A model generated the notes under the pieces. The model was not told the DNA's origin, did not search any database, and saw nothing but the letters and a program-made list of their open reading frames with translations. This document shows positions 10,139 to 52,963 of a stretch of 64,000 bases of DNA, one piece after another; position 1 is the first letter of the stretch; each line of letters begins with the position of its first letter. Both the position numbers and the translations under genes were made by a program. Source of the DNA: Octopus sinensis (taxonomy: Eukaryota); the NCBI RefSeq assembly GCF_006345805.1, contig NC_043010.1, positions 40,548,001 through 40,612,000 of the forward strand. Direction: 5' to 3'.

Positions 10139-11206
10139 ATAACTTCGCGGTTCGCCATAGATAATCGATAAAATAACTTAGCCATTCGCCAAACATGATC
10201 GATTAAATACTTAGCGGTTGGCCAAAGAAATCGATAAAATAACATAGCGATTCGCCAAACATGATCAATTAAATAACTTAGAGGTTGGCCAAAGAAATCG
10301 ATAAAATAAGTTAGCGGTTCGCCAAAAGAGATTGATAAAATAACAACTCATTTGGCGAACTGCTAGGTAATTCTATCGCATCCCTTTGGCGAGCCGCTAG
10401 GTTATTTTATTGATATCCTTTTGCGAACAGTTATTTTATCGATCTCCTTTGGCAAACCGCCAAGTTATTTATCGTTATCCTTTGACAAAATGCTAAGTTA
10501 TTTTATCGATCACGTTTGGCGAACCGCTAAGTCATTTTATCCATAGCGATTGGCGAACAGCTACAGTTTTATCGATCTCCAAGGCGAACCGCTATCTTAT
10601 TTTATCGATCTCGTAGCGAACCGCTAAGTTATTTTATCGATCTCTGGCTAACCGCTAAATAATTTTATCGATTTGCTTTGGCGAACAACTAAGTTATTTT
10701 ATCGATATCCTTTGGCGTACCGCTAGCGTATTTTATCGATCCTGTTTGGCGAACTAATAAGTCATGTTATCGATCTCCTTTGGCGAACCGTTAAGTTATT
10801 TTATCGATTTTCTTTGGTGAACCGCTAGGGTATTTTATCGACCTTCTTTGACGAACCACTAAGTTATTTTCTCAATACTTTTAGCGAACCGCTAGTGTGT
10901 TTCATCGAACTCCCTTGGCGAACCGCTAGCTTATTTTATCGATCACCTTTGATGAACCGCTGAGTTATTTTATCGATATCTTTTGGCGAACCGCTAATTT
11001 ATTTTATCGACCTCCTTTGACGAACCGCTATGTTATTTTATCGACCTCCTTTGGCGAACCGCTAGGATATTTTATCGATAACGTTTGATGAACCGCTAAG
11101 TTATTTTTTCGATTTTGATTGGTGAACCGCTAAGTTATTTATTCGATTATGTTTGGCGAACCGCTTAGTTATATTATCGAACTTCTTCGAAGAACCGGTA
11201 AGTTAT
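10139..11206. repeat. 34-bp minisatellite with an internal inversion (~6 units one way 10139-10344, ~25 units the other way 10351-11206)
   Basis: Consensus TAACTTAGCGGTTCGCCAAAGGAGATCGATAAAA and its reverse complement. Confidence 0.92.
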
Positions 11207-11458
11207 CCCAGGCCTTGCACAGGCTTAAAATAGTTTATTATTGTTTTTTCTTCTTCCGGTATTAAAACCCGATTTCATTCTGGTCTATGCGGGCCACAGT
11301 TTTAAAGATGAGAAATTTTACCCTAGACGCTATGCCTTTCAATTGAGCAAACTCAAAGTTGCCATGCAAACTCGCTACCACTTTCAACATCAATCCAAGC
11401 ACATATGCACATAATATATATACATATATATATACGCATTATATATACATGTCTACAG

Positions 11459-11789: not shown

Positions 11790-11980
11790 AGACCGGTAAA
11801 ATAACTAGCGGTTCGCCAGAGAGCGATAAAATAACCTAGCGGTTCGCCATCAAGATCGATAAAATATTTTAGCGGTTCGCCAAAGGAGATCAATAAAATG
11901 GCATAGCGGCTCGCCAAAGGAGAGCGATAAAATAACTCAGCTGTTCGCCAATTGAGAACGATAAAATAACTTAGCGGTTA
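11790..11980. repeat. Third block (~5 units) of the 34-bp minisatellite, inverted relative to 10351-11206
   Basis: AAAATAAC(C/T)TAGCGGTTCGCCA..GATCGAT units. Confidence 0.9.
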
Positions 11981-18852: not shown

Positions 18853-19077
18853 TATTACTTTACTACCCACAAGGGGCTAAACACAGAGGGGACAAACAAT
18901 GACTGACAAACGGATTATGTCGATTATACCGACCCCAGTGCGTAACTGGTACTTAATTTATCGACCCTGAAAGGATGAAAGGCAAAGTCAACCTCGGCGG
19001 AATTTGAACTCAGAAGGTAACGGCAGACGAAATACGGCTACGCATTTCACCCGGCGCGCTAACGTTTCTGCCAGCTC
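18853..19077 (-). mobile_element. Meta-domain SINE monomer with Tx1-like tail (type 1) and 11-bp TSD
   Basis: TSD GCGTACTTATA at 18842-18852 and 19078-19088; tail TTGTCCCCTCTGTGTTTAGCCCCTTGTGGGTAGTAAAG. Confidence 0.88.
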
Positions 19078-19330
19078 GCGTACTTATAGTCTACTGATCC
19101 GTTATTGGTAGGATATACGAAAATTATTCAATCCAGTGAAAGATTAATATCATTTAATATACACAGGTCTGAAAAAAAGAACAAGCTACAATAAGTGACA
19201 TTCCTCTGATAATATACAAAAAATGCATGAGCTTGTATAGTGTGCCATGCATTTTTAGGCAAACATATAACTGCTCGTATTTAAAACCTGAGTATATTGA
19301 AAAATATAAGTAGATAGATAGATAGATAAG

Positions 19331-37366: not shown

Positions 37367-38594
37367 GTATGTATGTATGTATTATGTATTATTTGTTTGT
37401 CTAGTTATTTATTGTATGAGTTAATTGTAATTTTTCTTCCACTACAAAACCTCTTTTGAACGCAGCACACACAATACTTTCAGGAAAATGTATACACTAA
37501 AACGTCTTTTCCATACAAAAGGCTCTACGTAAAACGAAATTCTTTTGTTTCCTTCCCTCACTTTTACTTGTGTATTCACACACCTATTACCTTCCCAGTA
37601 ATATAAGTGAATAAGGTGAGTAAAATCATTTATTTGCTAAGTTCAAAAATTAAATTTGATTTATTTAAGCACAAAATATATTCATCACATGCGCACATTT
37701 TCTGGGTATTTTTTATATATATACATACATCCCCCTCACACGCAATCACACACACACACACACACATGTTTAATAATTCGAAAATATAATACTCATAACA
37801 AATAAAAGAGCTGCAAAAGATTGCTGAAGATATTTCGTTCCCCCAACCCACCACATGTACAATGAAAAGTTAGTCTATTATATTTTGATTATGCTCCCTT
37901 AAAATGTTATTTACAATGACACCTGACCAATAACAAACAAAGAAAAGGAATACGTATTAAAGGATCCACGGGGAACATGTAAATACTAAACAAACTAACT
38001 TCAAACCATTGCTATTCTACACATTGAAAAACGTGATAAATAATATAAACAGGAAACTGAATCAATGGAATACAACGAAGGACTCGTGAGGAACGTCGTA
38101 ATGCGACCTTAATGAGATCACGCTATGGAATTTTATTCAAAGTTTGTGCGAACGAGGAAATGGTGGCTTTTCAAAATACTAGATACCAATACAATGCCCC
38201 AATTCATATTGGTTGCGTGGATAAAAATATAATTAGATGTTACAGTGGAATCTCGAAGGAAAGAAACAACATTTGCAAGTGTTGCACGTATAATATTGAG
38301 CCCCCTTAGATGCTTCTATGAGGTCATACAATCTACTAGAAATATGATAATTTTCAAAATCTCCTTCACATAATGCCCCAATATAAAACGGAGGTGTTAA
38401 TGTAATGGTATGCTGTTTAGGTACAAAGTCTGTAATATGGAGAGTAGTGTGTTGGTCAATATCATCGAATCTGGAGGTATTAAATATGAATTTGACATTA
38501 ATGGAATTTGAACTCTGAGCTTAAAGAGCGAAAGTAGCAAAGCATTGTTTTTTCGGCGTCCTAACGATTCTGTCAATCCACCATCCAGGAAACT

Positions 38595-38997
38595 AAGGCG
38601 GCGAGCTGGCAGAAACGTTAGCACACACGGCGAAATGCTTTGCCGTATTTCGTCTGCCGCTACGTTCTGAGTTCAAATCCCGCCGAGGTCGACTTTGCCT
38701 TTCATCCTTTCGGGGTCGATAAATCAAGTACCAGTTACGCAGTGGTGTCGATATAATCGACTTAATCCGTTGGTCTGTCCTTGTTTGTCTTTTCTTTGCT
38801 TAGCCCCTTGTGGGCAATAAAGAAATAGGTATTTCGTTTGTCTTTAGGTTCTGAGTTCAAATTCTGCCGAGGTCGACTTTGCCTTTCATCCTTTCGGGGT
38901 CGATAAAATAAGTACCAGTTGAACACTGGGGTCGATGTAATCCACTGTTCCTCTCCCCATCTCCCAAATGTCTGGCCTTGTATCTAGAATAGAAAAG
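38595..38997 (+). mobile_element. Dimeric Meta-domain SINE with 20-bp TSD
   Basis: TSD AATCCACCATCCAGGAAACT at 38575-38594 and 38998-39017; monomer 1 has tail type 1, headless monomer 2 has tail type 2. Confidence 0.88.
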
Positions 38998-39826: not shown

Positions 39827-40423
39827 CGGTGAGCTGGCAGAAACGTTAGCACGCCGGGAGAAATACGTACCCATATTTCGTCTGCCGTTACGTTCTGAGT
39901 TCAAATTCCGCAGAAGCCGACTTTACCTTTCATCCTTTCGGGGTTGATTAAATAAGTACCGGTTACGCACTGGGGTCGATATAATCGACTTAATCCGTTT
40001 GTCTGTCCTTGTTTGTCCTCTCTGTGTTTAGCCCCTTGTGGGTAGTAAAGAAATAGGTATTTCGTCTGCCACTACGTTCTGAGTTCAAATTCCGCCGAGG
40101 TCCACTTTGCCTTTCATCCTTTCGGGGTCGATAAAATAAGTACCGGTTACGCACTGGGGTCGATATAATCGACTTAATCCGTTTGTCTGTCCTTGTTTGT
40201 CCTCTCTGTGTTTAGCCCCTTGTGGGTAGTAAAGAAATAGGTATTTCGTTTGTCTTTAGGTTCTGAGTTCAAATTCCGCCGAGGTCGACTTTGCCTTTCA
40301 TTCTTTCGGGGTCGATAAAATAAGTTCCAGTTACAAACTGGGGTCGCTGTAATCAACTTGATCCCTTTGTTTATCCTTTTTTTGTCCCCTCTATGTTTAG
40401 CCCCTTGTGGGCAATAAAGAAAT
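39827..40423 (+). mobile_element. Trimeric Meta-domain SINE (one full + two headless 184-bp units, all with Tx1-like tail)
   Basis: Units restart at GTATTTCG at 40057 and 40241 after AAAGAAATAG. Confidence 0.88.
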
Positions 40424-43272: not shown

Positions 43273-44333
43273 GTGTGGAGTTATTGTTCAGTCGCGGTTC
43301 AGGTCTGATGAAGTAGACAAATAACGAAAGGCGTATCAACTGTGACCAACCATCTTTTTATTTAAGCAAAATGAATCAAGAATTTACAATACACAACGCT
43401 TCCCTTTTTCGGACGGGGATTAATTGTAAGGAGATTTGGCTACTATTACAAGCAGGTCGAGAAACCAAGTAGCTACTATCCAATTTAAGAATTGTATCTG
43501 TCGTTCGCTCATTCGTTTATTCTTTTGTCGATCCGCTGTAGTGTTGATCTGCATTATGAAGTTACACTGCTCATAAGATTCCTTGGTTGATGATTAATCT
43601 TTTGAAAACATTCCATTTCTCCTCACTGGATATTAAATAGGCTTCGCAGCGTGATTCCAATGAACTCATATTACGACATTCTTGACAAACTCTTCATAGC
43701 ATTCTTACATTTCTAGCATGATAGCATTTATCATTTGTAGTATTAATCACGTTCTCGATAAATAATTAACAATAGAAATAATAACAACACCACCAACAAC
43801 AACAACGACAACAATTATAATAACAGTATCAACTTTTCTCAAAAAGCCTGCAGTTTCTGGGGAGGGGGTTGGTCGATTAAATCAAACACTGAGCGCAACG
43901 GGGACTTATTATATCGAAAGCCAAAGGATGAACGACAAAGACGAACTCCACGAAATTTGAACTCAGAACATAAAAGCGGAGGAAATACCGCTAAGCACTT
44001 CGTCCGGCGTGCTAACGAATCTGCCAGCTTGTCAACTAACAACAAAAAGATTAACAATAATAATGATGGTTTCGAATTTTCGCACAAGGCCAGCAATTTT
44101 GCGGGAGGGCACAAGTCGATTACATCAACCCCAGTGTTCAACAAGTATTTATTTTATCGACGCCGAAAGGATGAAATGCAAGGTCGACTCTAGTGTCATC
44201 TCATCTCAGAACTTAACGTCCGAAGAAATGGCACGAAGCATTTTTTCCGGTGTGCTAACGATTCTGCCAGCTCATCGCCTTATTAACAACAACAACAACA
44301 ATAATAGTAATAATAATATAATAATAATAATAA

Positions 44334-44878
44334 ATGCCCTGATGCAGCACCAGGCAGTGGCTCTCGTGGCTTCTGATCTTAACTGATTGAAAGTGTCATC
44401 ATGTACATTGTTCTGTCTTGGTATAAAAGATAGGCTACAGCAAATATTCCTCTAAATGCTTGTCAGTTGTTTGACCTTAACCAGTTGAGCAAGTCCCCAA
44501 ATGACTGACGATATGTGCATCTCTGATCACGAGCAGAAGTAGTGGGGAAGCATCATAGCCATGTGTTGAGAGGAAATCTTTGGGGTTTGGATAATTCACC
44601 TTTGGAAACATGGGTGTTTCGTTCAAGATCGTTAAACAACCCTTATTCAGGGACCTTTAGAGCGGGATGGGCTACTCGACCAGAGGAAAATTCTAGCCGG
44701 GCCCCACCTGCAAGGTCATGTGCTGTTTATCTTGATATGAGATCACCATGTCGCGCACATATGGTTGTGATGCATGTGCTTGGTGTACTCTTATCAGACG
44801 GGTAGTCATGATAGGTATACTGGGCTTCGTATATTTTACCCCAGTGTCACTGTGATGGCATGCACTGCTCTCTCACTC
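44334..44878. mobile_element. Unclassified interspersed insert bounded by (TAA)n on both sides; short second insert 44905-44983
   Basis: Abrupt compositional shift inside a (TAA)n tract; no coding motif recognised. Confidence 0.45.
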
Positions 44879-45417
44879 AATAATAATAATATAATAATAA
44901 TAATTCTCTTTATCCCCGTCTGTCTTGATAGACAATGGGTTGCGCCAAGGGTGGGGCCTACTTTGGTGATGTGCAGCGTCTGCTAATAATAATAATAACC
45001 GCAATAACAACAACAACAACGTTAGAAATTTATATATCATATATCGCTAGTCGGTACAACCTAGTGATTAGCGCTACTTTGCAGTATCCTGTCATTACTT
45101 TTTTTCGGATTTTCTTCTTGCTGTTACACATCCTATTTACTGGTTATTAAGAGTGATATATGTTCTGCTCTGTTTCATTAGATTTTAATATCTTATTCAT
45201 CCAATACATAATCAAACTACATTTGATTTTTGTACGCTACAATACGTGTGATACTTGTATCTTTACTGGCATTTAACGCCATTGCTTCATTTCCGGGCAA
45301 TTTGATTTTCTAGTGGTAAATGGCTTATTCTAGTCGTCTAAAGGAGTTATCATTAGTAACGTTTGTTTACATGTAGGTCTTTTTCAATGAAACCTTCATT
45401 AATGGTTGATCATTGAC

Positions 45418-45461
<44 letters not shown>

Positions 45462-45490
45462 ATATATATAAATAATATAAGAATATATAT

Positions 45491-45537
<47 letters not shown>

Positions 45538-45542
45538 TATAA

Positions 45543-45594
<52 letters not shown>

Positions 45595-45621
45595 GTATAT
45601 ATATATACGTATATATATATA

Positions 45622-46010
45622 CTAGCAGTATCGCCCGGCGTTGCTCGGGTTGTAAGGGAAATAATTATATAAGCTTTTTAGAGATGTAAAGTATAATAGC
45701 CATCTCAATAGGCTAACCACAAAGGGGGAGGGGTGTTACTGTAGCTTTTTACGTTCTGAGATTAATAATAAATTTTAGAGAGTTACTTCCCTTATATATG
45801 TCAAAAATGGATTAAAAATGGGAAAAATTGATGGTAAATTTTTTTAAAATCGTAGACTCATCGTAGACGCGCGCTAATACCAGACGGTCTCGATATGAAT
45901 CACGACTATAAGATACCCGGTTTTGGTTAAACTGCACCGCAAAATGTGGGAGTAGTTAGGAATCTAAATCGTAGGAGACAGACACACAACCTCACTTTTA
46001 TATATAAAGA
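45622..46010 (-). mobile_element. Non-autonomous Helitron H1 copy 5
   Basis: A|TC...hairpin-CTAG|T termini on minus strand. Confidence 0.85.
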
Positions 46011-46172
46011 TTTCCTCTATTTACATAATATTGAGGTCTCTTTCTTTCTTTTGTTATCTTACTGTTTTTACCAATATACATATATATATATATATAAATA
46101 TATATATAGTTACAGAGATGTACTTGCATAGCAAGTGACTTGATCTGAGATCGTGTGCTGGAACGAAAACAG

Positions 46173-46428
46173 TTGCAGCGTGAAGGTGTTTATAAGCCAT
46201 TTAAGAAACACACAAAAACCGTTAGATTCACTTCAACATTTAAATTTAATTTGTCAAAAATTTTCGTCGCTTTGAGACCGCGACCTGTTAGCACGATATT
46301 TTTGTCAGTGAACAGGTCGCGGTCTGAAAGCGACGAAAATATTTTGGCGAATTAAATTTAAATGTTGAAGTGAATGTAACGGTTTTTGTGGTTTCTTAAA
46401 TGGCTTAGAAACACCTTCCAGGCTGCAA
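46173..46428. repeat. Long palindrome (~117-bp arms, ~20-nt loop); single arm also at 56633-56737
   Basis: TTGCAGCGTGAAGGTGTTT...GACCGCGACCTGTT vs AACAGGTCGCGGTC...AAACACCTTCCAGGCTGCAA. Confidence 0.9.
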
Positions 46429-46789: not shown

Positions 46790-47268
46790 CAGACCTGGTA
46801 GAAACAGCAGCCAAATCTCCCTCAAATCACACCTTACTGTCTATGTATGTATATATATATGAGCCAATGAGGGGGACCTCTACATGGTAGCTAGACCTGG
46901 TAGAAATAGCAGCCAAATTTCCCCCAAATCACATCTTACGTCTTATCTATGTATATATGTATGTATGAGCCTATGAGGGAGACCCCTACATGGCAGCTAG
47001 ACCTGGTAGAAATAGCAGCCAAATTTCCCCCAAATCACACCTTACCGTCTTATCTATGTATATATGTATGTATGAGCCTATGAGGGAGACCCCTACATGG
47101 CAGCTAGACCTGGTAGAAATAGCAGCCAAATTTCCCCCAAAACACACTTTACTGTCTTATCTATGTATATATGTATGTATGAGCCTATGAGGGAGACCCC
47201 TACATGGCAGCTAGACATGGTAGAAATAGCAGCCAAATCTCCCTCAAATCACACCTTACTGTCTTATC
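46790..47268. repeat. 107-bp tandem repeat, ~4.5 units
   Basis: ATGAGCCTATGAGGGAGACCCCTACATGGCAGCTAGACCTGGTAGAAATAGCAGCC recurs at 107-bp spacing (ORF starts 46990, 47097, 47204). Confidence 0.93.
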
Positions 47269-47494
47269 TTTCTGCTACTTGGATATAGGTGTTATATTCG
47301 TCGTAAAAAAACTTTCCTGTCACACACTCACGCACACGCACACACACACACACACACGCACCCTCACACACACACACGCGCGCACACCCACACACACCCA
47401 CTCACACACACGCACGTTAGCTTACAATTTTATTTATATATTTGCGTGTCTGTGTGGAAAGAGGAAGTGGGAGGCAGAGTGAAAGAATCACTCA

Positions 47495-47779: not shown

Positions 47780-48358
47780 TATAATATAAGAATATATATA
47801 TATATCTTTATATATATAAAACTGAGAATGTGTGTCTGTCTGTCTGTGTTTCCCTAAAACTTGAGAACCACACAAACAATTTCATTCAAATTTTACACAT
47901 GCCTTACTTAGGGTCCGGGAGGTGTCATGGGCAAAAAGAATGTTCAACTTCCTGCCTAGAGCGAGCCCATAGCAATATCATATCTTCTCCACTATTTCAG
48001 TATTACGTGCTAAACGTGAAACAAAAACGTTTCTCTATTTTATGTCAGATACTTTCACTTTAACAATAAAAATAATAATAACAATTTAATTATATGTAGT
48101 AAGTAATAATTAAAATCAAACTAAAGTATAATATAATCGTAACATAACAAAAGTAAAAATAGCAATTGGTATAAAATTGCATCAATCACTTGAACGTGAA
48201 TAAGTGGTTTCACATGAATGGGAATAAATTAAAAATAAAATTAGCGTGCAGAAATGGAATAGACCAGATGGATAATAAAAAATTAAATTAAAGAAAACAC
48301 TATTGTCTATAAAGTATACAATGTAGAGAAAAAAGAAGATTTGAACAAGCGTCGGAAA

Positions 48359-50266
48359 TCTATCCACGTGTGTTGTGAGTTGTTTTGTATGTGAGGGTTG
48401 GAAAGGGGAACTGTTAAAAATTGTCAAAGGGTTGAGTCGCGCGAGGCGTTTGCCGCTGCGTGTTTGAACCTTTTATGGAGGGTGTGTCGACCCTCAAGTC
48501 GTGCAGACTTGCGCGGGGGTCGCCACAACAAAAAGTGACGAGTCTCTTGGAATAAAAGAGGTGTTCTTTGGAAAGGAACAATTGAAGGAGTGCGAGAGGT
48601 TCGTCAAGGGGGGGGGGTGACAGCGTGAAGCTGGTCCCGCCTGTGGAAACAGTGGAAGAGAGGAGTAGCGGGACGATAGCGTGTAGAACGCAAGATGGAA
48701 GCGCGTGGGGGCTGGTGGGAGTGACGATTGAAGAAATAGAGAAATGTCTGGGGGACATCATGAAAAAAGCGACTTTTGTAGACAGAGGAAAGAAATATGG
48801 TACGGTGGAGTGAGATGCGCAACAAAGGAAGTGGCGGCCTCATTGGCTTCCACTGTCCTGAAAGCGGAAAATTTCACCATGTGGCCGACGTATAAAGGAA
48901 GACGTGGGGTACGGGTAAGAGTCCCAAAGGTGCCCCCAGATATTAAAACAGAAATGCTGGTAACAGCCATTATTGGGGCAGCAAAAGAGGAAGTAGAAAT
49001 AGGGTCAATTAAGGAGAACGAACGTTGTAAATTGGAAGGAATTCGGATAGAGTTGTGGCTGATGGCCACAATGGAAGACATCGAAAGATTTCCCTTCCAA
49101 ATAGAAATAGAAAACGAGAAAACAATTAGTGTAATAGTGGAAGGCAGAAAACCGAATTGCTACCTGTGCGGATCAAGAGGGCACATAAAAAAGGAATGTC
49201 CGCTGTATGAATTCACAGCGGAGCAAAAAGAGACACAAAGTGGAGAGAAGGAAAACGAACACGAAGGAAAGAACAGCGAAAACAAGGAAAAGGAAATAAC
49301 GGAGAAACAACAAGAGAAGGGAAGTAACAGCGCACTGAAGGAAAATGAAAACAAAGGAAGAAGATAGTAGAAAAGGAGCAAAATTCACAGGGTGCAGAAG
49401 TAGTGGAGAAGGAGCCAAGGCAGAAGCAAGAGAAAGAAAAGGAAAGTACATTAAAGGAAAGAGAAAAAGCAGGAAAAGAACAAGAGAAGGAACAGAACCA
49501 AGAGAAAGGAAAAGATGGTATGCAAAAAGGAAAAGAAACAACAGGAAAGGAACTTAAGCACAGGGTAGAGAGACGGCAGACAAAGAGCCAAAAGACAAGA
49601 GAAGGAAAAGAAAGAGAGAAAGCAAAAAGAGAGAAAGAGAGAGACCGAGGGAGGAGAAAAAAGAGGAAGTAAGTCCTAAGAGAAAAACTAGAGAAAACGT
49701 AGGTACGAATAGAAAATTCAAATACTATGGAACGTTGATCCATCACAGGCACTGTGAGGAGATGGAAGATTTAATAAACGTAACAAACGGATATACGTGG
49801 GTCAGGATGGGCACCGAATGGAAAGAAACAGGTGCACTCGTCCACGAGAACGACGCCGAGGCGTTCATCGAGGCAGCTGGCAAGAACGTGTCAAAACATA
49901 TGAAATGCCGACTTACAAGGTGGCCTCGAACGATGGAAGTTTACTCAGATTTGGTAGACATAATGGAGTATATATAAAAGAAAAGGTATTGTGAAAACTT
50001 TAATTTGGAAATGATAAAAAGAACTTTAAATTCTGAAAAAAAAAAAGAAATGTTGAACTTTGTAAAACTTTTGAAATGTATGTTGAAAATGTATAAAATG
50101 TTTTATTTGGAAAATATTGTTGACGAATAAAAAACAAATGACGAAATGTAACCGCTCGATTTCGGGGATCGAGTGGGCATTACACCACATGTACAACTTC
50201 ATAATTCATTATTCATTTTCCCGATTATATTGTCCCATCTATGTAGCCCCTAGTGGGTAATAATAA
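48359..50266 (+). mobile_element. ORF1-only non-autonomous non-LTR retroelement, copy 1
   Basis: Starts TCTAT; single disrupted ORF; 3' UTR hairpin; ends TTGTCCCATCTATGTAGCCCCTAGTGGGTAATAATAAA; colinear with 50282-52037. Confidence 0.82.
48501..49977 (+). pseudogene. Gag/ORF1-like zinc-knuckle protein, copy 1 (start ATG->GTG, frameshifts)
   Basis: VRVRVPKVPPDI..VIVEGRKPNCYLCGSRGHIKKEC (CX2CX4HX4C), K/E-rich linker, C-terminal domain ending IMEYI*. Confidence 0.85.
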
Positions 50267-50281
50267 AACAAATGGAGGAAA

Positions 50282-52037
50282 TCTATGCGTGTTGTTATCT
50301 GTGACTAGACGGTGAAATTTTTTCTGTGTAACTTGATTTGATATCGCGCGTGGCGTTTGCCTCCACGTGTGGAAACCTTCCGAAGAAGGTGAATTGACCC
50401 TCTAGTCATGGCGACTTACGTGGGGGTCACCGGGAAAAATAACGATTCGTCGATAATCATAAAGGAGGTTTTCTTTGAGAAGGATAAACTCAAAGAATAT
50501 GAAAAGCTCTTCAAAAGGGAGGGTGATAGCGTAAAGCTAATCCCCCCCGCGAAAGCAAAAGAGGATAAAGAAAGCAAGACAGTGACATACAGAACCCAAG
50601 ACAAAAATACGAAGAAACTGGCAAGAGTGGAGATAGTCGAAATTGAAAAATGTCTGGGAGACATAATGGGGAAAATAACCTACGTGAGTAGCGGCAAGAA
50701 ATTTGGTACGGTGGAGGTGAGATGTGCAACGGAAGAAATTGCGGCATCACTGGCTACCACCGTACTAAGAGCCGAAAAATTCACAATGTGGCCCTCATAC
50801 AAGGGAAGAAGAGGGGTCCGGGTTAAAATCCCGAATATACCCCCAGAAGTGAAAACAGAATGGCTGGCAACAGCTATTCTAGGAGCAGCAGAAGAGGAAG
50901 TGGAGGTGGAATCAATTACGGAGTCCAACGCGGTAAACTGGAGAGGATATGGGGAAGAATTGTGGTTGATGGCCACAAAAGAGGATATTGAAAGGTTCCC
51001 ATACAGAATTGAAATTGAAGAGGAAAAAACCCTCAGCGTAATTGTAGAGGGGAGAAAACCAAACTGTTACTTGTGTGGGACAAGGGGGCACATAAAAAAG
51101 AGTGCCCGTTATACGAATTCGTAGCGGAGTGCGAGCAGAACTTGAAGAAAACAAGAATACTGTAAATGAGAAAGAAAACATAGAAAAGGAAACAAAACAA
51201 CAAGAGAAAGGAAATAATAAGTCAATGAAGGAAAAAGAAATAAAAGAAAAGAAAGAAATAGAACCAAAACAGAGTCAGGAAAAAAAAAAGGAAAAGAAAC
51301 AATAGGAAAAAACAAGAGAGAGATCAGAATCAAACGAAAAGAAAAGACGGCACACAAAAGGAAAAGAAAAGGAACATAAAACACGAGAGAAGAGAGAACA
51401 GAGAAAGAACCAAAAAGACAAGAGAAGGAAGGAGAAAGAAAAGAAGGCAAAAAGAGAGAAAGAGAGAAACAAAGAGAGGAGAACAAGGAAGAAATAAGCC
51501 CGAAAATGAAAATGAAGGAAAACGTAGGACGGAAACAAGATTACTATTACTACAAGTTAGTAACCTTCCATTTCTGCCCTGAAATGAAAGACTTGACATG
51601 TAAAACGGAGGGACATATATGGGTCAACAGGATGACCGATCGGTGGCAGGAGACTGCTCTAATCCCCGAAGAAAGAGTCGCTGAGTTCCTCAGAGCTGCC
51701 GGAGAGAGTGTAATATTTTACACGAAGGTTCGAGTGAGAGAGCGGCTGCCTGAGGGCTCAGTGATGGACTTCAGAGAAGTGGAAACTATGATAGAATATG
51801 TATAGAATTGTGAGAAGAAGAAAAAAAAAGAGAAAAAAGAAAATTTTGTGAAATATATGTGACGAAAATGTAACCTCTCGATTCCGGGGATCGAGTGGGC
51901 ATTTACATCTCATTGTAAATATTTTCATATGTCATTTTTTACTTTTATTTTTTCCTTTTCTTGTCATTCGCTTTCTTATTTTAAGTTCTCCGATTGTATT
52001 GTCCCATCTATGTTCGCCCCTTGTGGGTAGTAATAAA
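50282..52037 (+). mobile_element. ORF1-only non-autonomous non-LTR retroelement, copy 2
   Basis: Starts TCTAT; ends TTGTCCCATCTATGTTCGCCCCTTGTGGGTAGTAATAAA. Confidence 0.82.
50408..51805 (+). pseudogene. Gag/ORF1-like zinc-knuckle protein, copy 2 (frameshifts fall in A-runs, may be assembly errors)
   Basis: ORF 50408-51124 to CYLCGTRGHIKK(EC), K/E linker, ORF 51506-51805 ending MIEYV*. Confidence 0.85.
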
Positions 52038-52040
52038 ATC

Positions 52041-52340
52041 AAATGGAGGAAAGCACCTTCGAAAAGTGTCTTGGCGCGACTATGAAAGGTATCTAATCAG
52101 AGGCGGTAAATTCGCCACAATAGAAGCAAGGTTCGAGTCAACGGAGCGTGCAAGGGAGTACTCGACTCGAACTTGCAAAGTGGAAATATTTTATTTTTAC
52201 CTTTATATCTGTGACGTAGGACGTCCCGGAAAAAAAATTTAAATGCCCCATCCCCCAGAAGTAGAGGTAGGATGGATTGTAGCCACACTTCTATACAAGA
52301 GGGAGGACAAGATACAATTTATCGAAATTACAAGAGACTG
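52041..52340 (+). pseudogene. Right half of an older, diverged ORF1 homolog (left half at ~48270-48358) interrupted by copies 1 and 2
   Basis: Left ENTIVYKVYNVEKK.RFEQ joins right MEESTFEKCLG..RGGKFATIEARF..IPPEVEVGWIVATLL, aligning with copy 2 SKTVTYRTQDKNTKKLARVEIVEIEKCLG..GKKFGTVEVRC..IPPEVKTEWLATAIL. Confidence 0.75.
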
Positions 52341-52963
52341 GCTAACAATTCCAGTCTGTTATATATTTTGAGTATTGTTATCACTAGCGATATCAAGATG
52401 TAACTTTGTATTTTGTATATTATGTGTAGATGTATATATATCTAGATGTACATGTAATATGTACACATATATATACACATATATACATGCACTAGACTAT
52501 GACCCGGCAACGACGGATCTTTAATGCTAGTATATATATAAATATACATATAGATATAATACATATACAATACATATATATATATATATATACATATAAA
52601 TATATATATAATATATAGGTATATATATACATATAAATATATATATAATATATAGGTATATATATATATATAATATATATATATATAGATATATATATAT
52701 ATATATACACATATATGTATAAGATGTATTGGTATCTAGAAGACCCAAAGAGTGGCAGGTAATGAGTGCGATGGGCAGACCGTAGTTAAACTCTTGGTTC
52801 GATAGTGATACGAGTTAGGAGTCTATGTGGGTCTTGTATTAGCATTCATATATATATGAATTTTGTCTAAGATATATATATACACACTCACACTTACATC
52901 CACAAACACACGAACTCACACACGAACACACACATACATATATGTACATATATATATATATAC

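Follow-up and report, generated by a model that had tools for sequence, protein, structure and literature searches.

The closest described systems are found in crocodilians, where Tx1-Mar long interspersed nuclear elements (LINEs) occur with the element SINEU-3 in Mariner-N4_AMi, and in Xenopus, where Tx1 resides in the non-autonomous DNA transposon Tx1D (PMC4494074). HAL1, HeT-A and Ag-Sponge are non-autonomous LINEs that carry open reading frame 1 (ORF1) only (PMC5753468, PMC5786205), and R2Bm RNA keeps 27 nt of upstream target so that its cDNA can pair with the target top strand (PMC6895275). Here we analysed a 64,000-nt stretch of Octopus sinensis DNA (the window; C14:40548001-40612000 in a 2.72-Gb genome) that holds two tandem elements, U1 and U2. 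We assign a probability of about 0.82 to the reading that these belong to ORF1-only families which stack at a fixed site in a dead ORF1 inside a Helitron, with a two-ORF LINE of the L1/Tx1 group likely to mobilise them in trans. New is the joint occurrence of a Helitron as host, several ORF1-only families with site specificity, a landing site that the elements carry themselves and a retrocopy probably edited by ADAR.

Every ingredient except the edited retrocopy has a published precedent. Literature searches, which did not extend to Repbase, subscription papers and supplements, brought up no description of this system or of ADAR-edited genomic LINE copies; the Tx1 targets in supplementary figures S3-S6 of PMC4494074, which lie outside the literature searched, may include Helitrons. 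A repeat paper on Octopus vulgaris (PMC13282606) gives L1-Tx1 and Helitron only as counts.

Two ORF1-only families and a two-ORF partner

All parts of the locus at 47805-52530 are given on the forward (+) strand. U1 (48359-50266, 1908 nt) and U2 (50282-52037, 1756 nt) both start with TCTAT, finish in the same tail and encode a single product, an ORF1-like protein with a CCHC knuckle. Frameshifts disrupt ORF1 in both window copies, leaving remains at ~48468-49974 in U1, with the knuckle at ~49155-49202, and at 50393-51802 in U2. Pfam zf-CCHC is matched at 8e-6 in U1 and at 0.08 in the frameshifted U2. The two units share 74% identity (1248/1678 aligned bases). This structure and its coordinates agree with an earlier note on this DNA, which had described two colinear TCTAT-starting units with a common tail and a CCHC ORF1 only.

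Genome searches reveal two dispersed, young, ORF1-only non-LTR (lacking long terminal repeats) families. The 5' half of U2 has 390 genome candidates, 40 of which were scored and show 93–100% identity, and the exact U2 tail pattern occurs 120 times; 40 scored copies of the 3' part of U1 are 97–100% identical. Full-length copies measure 1877–1923 nt for U1 (n=39) and 1729–1777 nt for U2 (n=56). Open ORF1s of 473 aa and 504 aa are present in other copies, and an ORF of at least 430 aa is found in 3/39 and 9/56 full-length copies, respectively. The ORF1 core has a dN/dS of 0.14 between U1 and U2 at a dS of 1.3, and the U-type ORF1 is kept under purifying selection. To account for two such units, one could invoke independent deletion products of two-ORF LINEs, or a local tandem duplication: the tail is held in common with a two-ORF element and both window copies are broken. 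The fixed lengths, the open ORF1s and the low dN/dS argue against this, as do surveys of 60 stretches of 10 kb, in which ORF2 is absent after 61/61 U-type ORF1 hits with the tail in view and present after 36/36 partner-type hits (overlapping stretches were not merged, and hits below 60% identity or at an edge were excluded). The possibility, raised in the earlier note, that all full-length relatives carry an ORF2 falls with the same count. With the U-type ORF1 only 27% identical to that of the two-ORF partner, deletion or duplication is extremely unlikely. In a phylogenetic tree, the U-type ORF1s group in a clade of their own (support 100/100); another ORF1-only clade (C/D) and three two-ORF families branch separately.

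Pfam searches on 73 aligned ORF1 relatives returned CCHC knuckles and no L1 ORF1 family; likewise, PDB sequence matches comprised CCHC knuckles only and no L1 ORF1p. A structure model of ORF1 (mean pLDDT 77, confident fold over residues 21–270) predicts mixed α/β domains N-terminal of the knuckle.

The fixed ORF1-only structure, the conserved ORF1, the 3' end of an autonomous LINE and the target-site duplications are those of HAL1-like elements, and the ORF1-only content, purifying selection and autonomous-LINE 3' end are shared with HAL1, HeT-A and Ag-Sponge (PMC5753468, PMC5786205). HAL1 proper takes its ORF1 from mammalian L1 ORF1p, which does not apply here. Unlike these elements, the U families are site-specific inside another transposon. 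The ORF1-only elements here fall into two or more distinct ORF1 lineages (U and C/D), and their ORF1 is far from that of the present partner.

The partner is a 5.2-kb element found in arrays together with U1 and U2, between the same junctions. It contains ORF1 and an ORF2 with an APE-type (apurinic/apyrimidinic) endonuclease, reverse transcriptase and zf-RVT, and the best PDB match of ORF2 is L1 ORF2p (E 5e-65; R2 gives 2e-24). Judged by these sequence features, namely two ORFs, an APE endonuclease with reverse transcriptase and an L1-group ORF2, it belongs to the L1/Tx1 group of LINEs. Its target preference was seen at U2-array junctions rather than sampled on its own. The last 45–46 nt (93–96%) are common to the partner and to the reference copies of U1 and U2; in the window, these tails lie at 50221-50266 in U1 (45 nt, 96% in reference copies) and at 51990-52037 in U2 (46 nt, 93%). 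A further 49-nt patch is common to the partner and U1. Because the tail and the insertion site are held in common, the partner is the likely helper of U1 and U2. The non-autonomous, site-specific elements proposed in the earlier note are thus borne out, and a two-ORF partner with the same 3' tail has been found. Comparison of partner ORF2 with the reference copies of U1 or U2 gave no match below E 5. The end of the U1 ORF was also considered as a leftover of the ORF2 start and was rejected, the two showing no similarity.

The Helitron host and its dead ORF1

Both units sit within a non-autonomous Helitron (47805-52530), ~1.03 kb when empty and here split by a 3.7-kb insertion, which the earlier note had missed. 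Its 5' TC follows an A, a 3' hairpin lies at 52501-52519 and the terminal CTAG at 52527-52530 precedes a T. Non-autonomous HLE1 Helitrons likewise start with a 5' TC, end in a 3' hairpin and CTRR, insert between A and T without duplicating the site and enclose a gene fragment (PMC11417382). The two Helitron arms have 1938 and 2079 genome candidates, and the flanks rejoin over a single 15-mer at 25/29 other left-flank loci and 22/29 other right-flank loci, as had been predicted from the removal of both units. Uninterrupted host copies are plentiful: exact patterns detect 980 empty sites and 142 occupied right edges, with 0 hits for reversed-pattern controls.

To measure specificity, 84 exact U2 tails from C1 to the start of C14 were grouped into 44 arrays. 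An exact occupied edge lies within 25 kb in 16/44, and after flank reading the Helitron family, other sites included, holds 29/44. By our estimate, the Helitron would account for 0.6% of the genome even if it had 10,000 copies of 1.6 kb each. The families are site-specific, contrary to the random flanks that would have refuted the earlier note, and the proportion of arrays in the Helitron family lies above the >20% of flanks used as the criterion for Tx1-type target preference in PMC4494074. Since 29 of the 44 U2 arrays lie in this one family, the Helitron site is a safe-haven target and not a gene-disabling system. Additional insertion positions lie 10–25 nt upstream, at the leader of family X (see below) and 290 nt downstream. 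A second Helitron site of the same element group, at 52345-52360, is empty in the window and is used at loci L180 and L182. Arrays also arise outside the Helitron (L190, L191, L188).

The middle of the host is homologous to ORF1 (hidden Markov model E 1e-12). We refer to the source of this stretch as family X; its left piece lies at 48287-48358 and its right piece, which stops short of the knuckle, at 52053-52344. It is 33% identical to U2 ORF1 (E 3e-22), in line with the older relative's ORF1 of the earlier note, and family X ORF1 shares 25–37% identity with living ORF1s. A long Helitron form keeps the family X leader, 5' untranslated region (UTR) and first 176 codons, ending before the knuckle. 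With leader and 5' UTR present, this fragment seems to derive from a LINE insertion in the Helitron, unlike the captured host exons of HLE1 Helitrons. Within the Helitron, the family X ORF1 is truncated and broken by stops and frameshifts, and in the long form it mostly stops after codon 53. Among 300 scored matches (of 9809 and 1783 candidates), no long open family X frame was detected, the longest being 207 and 155 aa; flanks were inspected for 50 + 30 loci. A search for the host fragment in longer proteins gave 1 candidate and none scored, which is weak evidence. The older ORF1 is thus real, but it was dead and Helitron-borne before U1 and U2 inserted. At L187, a long Helitron form carries a third U-type family at family X's own leader.

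The earlier note had gone further and proposed that these half-LINEs specifically target, and disable, the ORF1 of related retroelements. The site does fall in frame inside a homolog of ORF1, and the leader, the 5' UTR and the first half of a family X ORF1 are present in the long Helitron form. However, what is targeted is half of a dead ORF1 that a Helitron has multiplied, with no long open counterpart among the scored matches; insertions also occur at other Helitron positions, in an unrelated repeat and at the leaders of the elements themselves; and the autonomous partner inserts at the same site. A system selected to disable related ORF1s is accordingly very unlikely, and we retain the safe-haven reading.

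This arrangement is reminiscent of Tx1-Mar and SINEU-3 (PMC4494074). In both systems, a LINE and its non-autonomous dependants insert at a common site of a DNA transposon that is itself non-autonomous and abundant. Tandem stacks form around the duplicated target, two host regions are used, and some copies carry a 5' extension resembling the host. The octopus host, however, is a Helitron, its dependants are protein-coding ORF1-only elements rather than short interspersed nuclear elements (SINEs) headed by small nuclear RNA, the main site falls within ORF1 sequence captured from an older relative, and the target copy is the regular 5' end of full-length elements.

The second target is a repeat of >2.5 kb with 167 candidates, which the same families hit at several neighbouring sites (L176, L177, L184, L185, L188, L191, L291-L310); Rfam gave no match on four of its loci. 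On C4, the compound arrays of L180-L183 resemble one another: their left edge is close to the main site, and they lack ~300 bp of the Helitron; at L180 and L182 the right edge is at the second site. These arrays possibly moved whole, as one RNA.

Junctions, leaders and array growth

Three 15-mers delimit the window units, at the positions given in the earlier note: junction 1 (48344-48358), junction 2 (50267-50281) and junction 3 (52038-52052). Junction 1 joins the host start of the site to a leader-type variant; junction 2 is a duplicated target with a rare C-to-A variant in common with junction 3; and junction 3 joins the element end to the host copy of the target. The 15-mer is both the target and the elements' own 5' leader. 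The suspicion that it might be an invariant part of the element was consequently right in that it belongs to the 5' end, and wrong in that it is also the host target. At unique sites, 7/8 full-length copies show a 15–18-bp duplication starting with ACA or TCACA, and inside these duplications the element begins with 7–17 nt of target-like leader. Leader-type variants occur at 11/27 left edges, 0/35 right edges and 0/62 empty sites, a few loci being counted twice. At L190, an array at a unique site formed on the leader.

We propose that partner ORF2 protein would bind the shared tail of U1 and U2 RNA, nick sites starting with ACA(T/C) and prime reverse transcription there, so that the 3' junction would retain the host's copy of the site. 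The leader-bearing cDNA end could then anneal to the upstream target, and the 5' junction could take leader sequence. The 5' end of every full-length copy would serve as a further landing site, from which head-to-tail arrays could grow. Host-site priming with 5' joining by pairing of cDNA and upstream target fits what has been proposed for R2Bm, which likewise carries upstream target sequence at the element 5' end (PMC6895275). R2 differs in its restriction-like endonuclease and ribosomal DNA target, whereas the octopus elements are APE-type with 15–18-bp duplications and reuse the carried target as a landing site. In the window, U2 is likely to have inserted before U1, which would have entered at the 5' junction of U2, because junctions 2 and 3 share the rare variant, whereas the sequence at junction 1 is like the leader of the copy most closely related to U1. 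The leader-type variant at junction 1 was likely brought by U1, as the same variant type precedes that relative, L146.

The association might instead reflect hitchhiking: with targeting seldom repeated, a small number of loaded Helitrons, or entire arrays, would have been multiplied through rolling-circle transposition, segmental duplication or unequal crossing-over. Two arrays on C3 are alike in unit order with unrelated outer flanks, and median U2 identity is 98.5% within arrays versus 94.6% between them. However, unit order varies between loci, the two C3 arrays lie in different Helitron sub-forms, variants private to one locus appear in duplicate, on either side of an insertion (junctions 2 and 3 of the window; L189), and 40/54 U2 units have their closest relative beyond their own array. 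Hitchhiking as the principal explanation is therefore unlikely, and repeated insertion at the site is preferred.

Several points nevertheless weigh against the scheme as a whole. Some arrays, which also speak for hitchhiking, are near-copies of each other (L208/L209; L181/L182, 97.5% identical over a stretch including the left arm), the nearest relative lies inside the same array in 14/54 cases and many arrays show a single junction variant throughout, across families. Given these same-array relatives and uniform variants, true duplication and some array copying do occur, and one or the other is needed besides leader transfer. Moreover, 15/44 U2 arrays are not shown to lie in the Helitron (6 in the second repeat, 6 at unique sites, 3 unassigned). 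Mobilisation in trans is inferred from the shared tail and site, and two more two-ORF families in the arrays could be additional helpers. Finally, placement of the partner in Tx1 rather than L1 is tentative: it would fit the CCHC ORF1, non-poly(A) tail and target preference, and among 120 partner homologs, none was a named Tx1 reference.

At L194-L197 (C3:72.15 and 72.26 Mb) and L100 (C24), a run of six to seven U2 units is followed by U1 and then by the partner; these arrays agree in their junction variant, their outer flanks are unrelated, and on C3 the Helitron sub-forms differ.

An A-to-G cluster in U1

The first 360 nt of U1 are hypermutated from A to G, a feature that the earlier note had also overlooked. 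Within 48382-48718, 39/202 conserved A are changed, alongside 3 other changes (counted over the first 620 alignment columns of U1 copies), versus 3/564 in the rest of U1. Compared with its nearest relative, U1 shows 50 differences in the first 400 nt, 43 of them A-to-G, and 8 in the remaining 1510 nt, 2 of them A-to-G. An A following G is spared (3/58 changed versus 36/144, p 0.0007), and depletion of G directly upstream of A-to-G sites is a signature of ADAR (PMC2873906). Densely clustered sense-strand changes, nearly all from A to G and with few G on the 5' side, are the pattern of a retrocopy hyper-edited by ADAR. Thus, the cluster probably represents RNA edits by ADAR that were written back into DNA, U1 having been copied from an RNA whose first 360 nt were probably hyper-edited; as it is the sense strand of a non-LTR element that carries the A-to-G changes, deamination of RNA rather than cDNA is suggested. 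In APOBEC-edited LTR retrotransposons (PMC4866542), too, clustered mutations of one direction and with a strand bias have become fixed in genomic copies of a retroelement, but U1 differs in being a non-LTR element with sense-strand A-to-G changes; the screen in that paper aimed mainly at G-to-A clusters in LTR elements.

Three observations detract from the editing reading. No inverted repeat inside the element was found as a source of double strand; the 400-nt segment folds at –98.7 kcal/mol, against –80.6 ± 5.1 kcal/mol for 30 plain shuffles. Of the edited stretch, only 48351-48460 is present in an independent contig (110 nt, run X2, depth 17, identical), possibly from the assembled sample, and 48476-48740 is at most touched by high-depth pieces of 31–38 nt from unedited gaps, so that the edited letters there are neither confirmed nor refuted; no RNA data set was listed as containing the stretch, which carries no weight as to its expression. 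Lastly, the A-to-G filter was passed by 1/39 U1 and 0/56 U2 full-length copies, in a sample picked by similarity and hence biased against edited copies. At L103 (G000:C10182, ~43700-46300, minus strand), the 5' part of a C/D-type ORF1-only copy shows 71 A-to-G versus 3 G-to-A changes against L097, making it a probable second edited retrocopy.

The broadest reading, to which we give even odds, is of a self-seeding LINE group, in which a Helitron multiplied an old member that had died inside it into thousands of safe landing sites, the 5' end of all living members, whether or not they encode ORF2, bears the site and germ-line ADAR edits of their RNA are made heritable as DNA. If so, the arrays would record the order of family activity and host editing. 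The locus offers a countable natural system for how APE-type LINEs complete the 5' junction, as leader variants mark the retained strand. It also bears on why non-autonomous LINEs keep ORF1 under selection, on whether A-to-I edits of retroelement RNA enter an animal genome, and on the Helitron as a multiplier of LINE target sites.

Run on the whole window, a repeat finder reported microsatellites only. Approximately four to five tandem copies of a 107-nt unit lie just upstream of the Helitron (46790-47270), and a 34-nt minisatellite array occupies 10338-11249; related sequence in inverted orientation lies near 11819-11973. At 18853-19086, 38594-38827 and 39831-40420, copies of a short repeat end in a tail resembling that of these LINEs, and this repeat is probably a SINE using related machinery.

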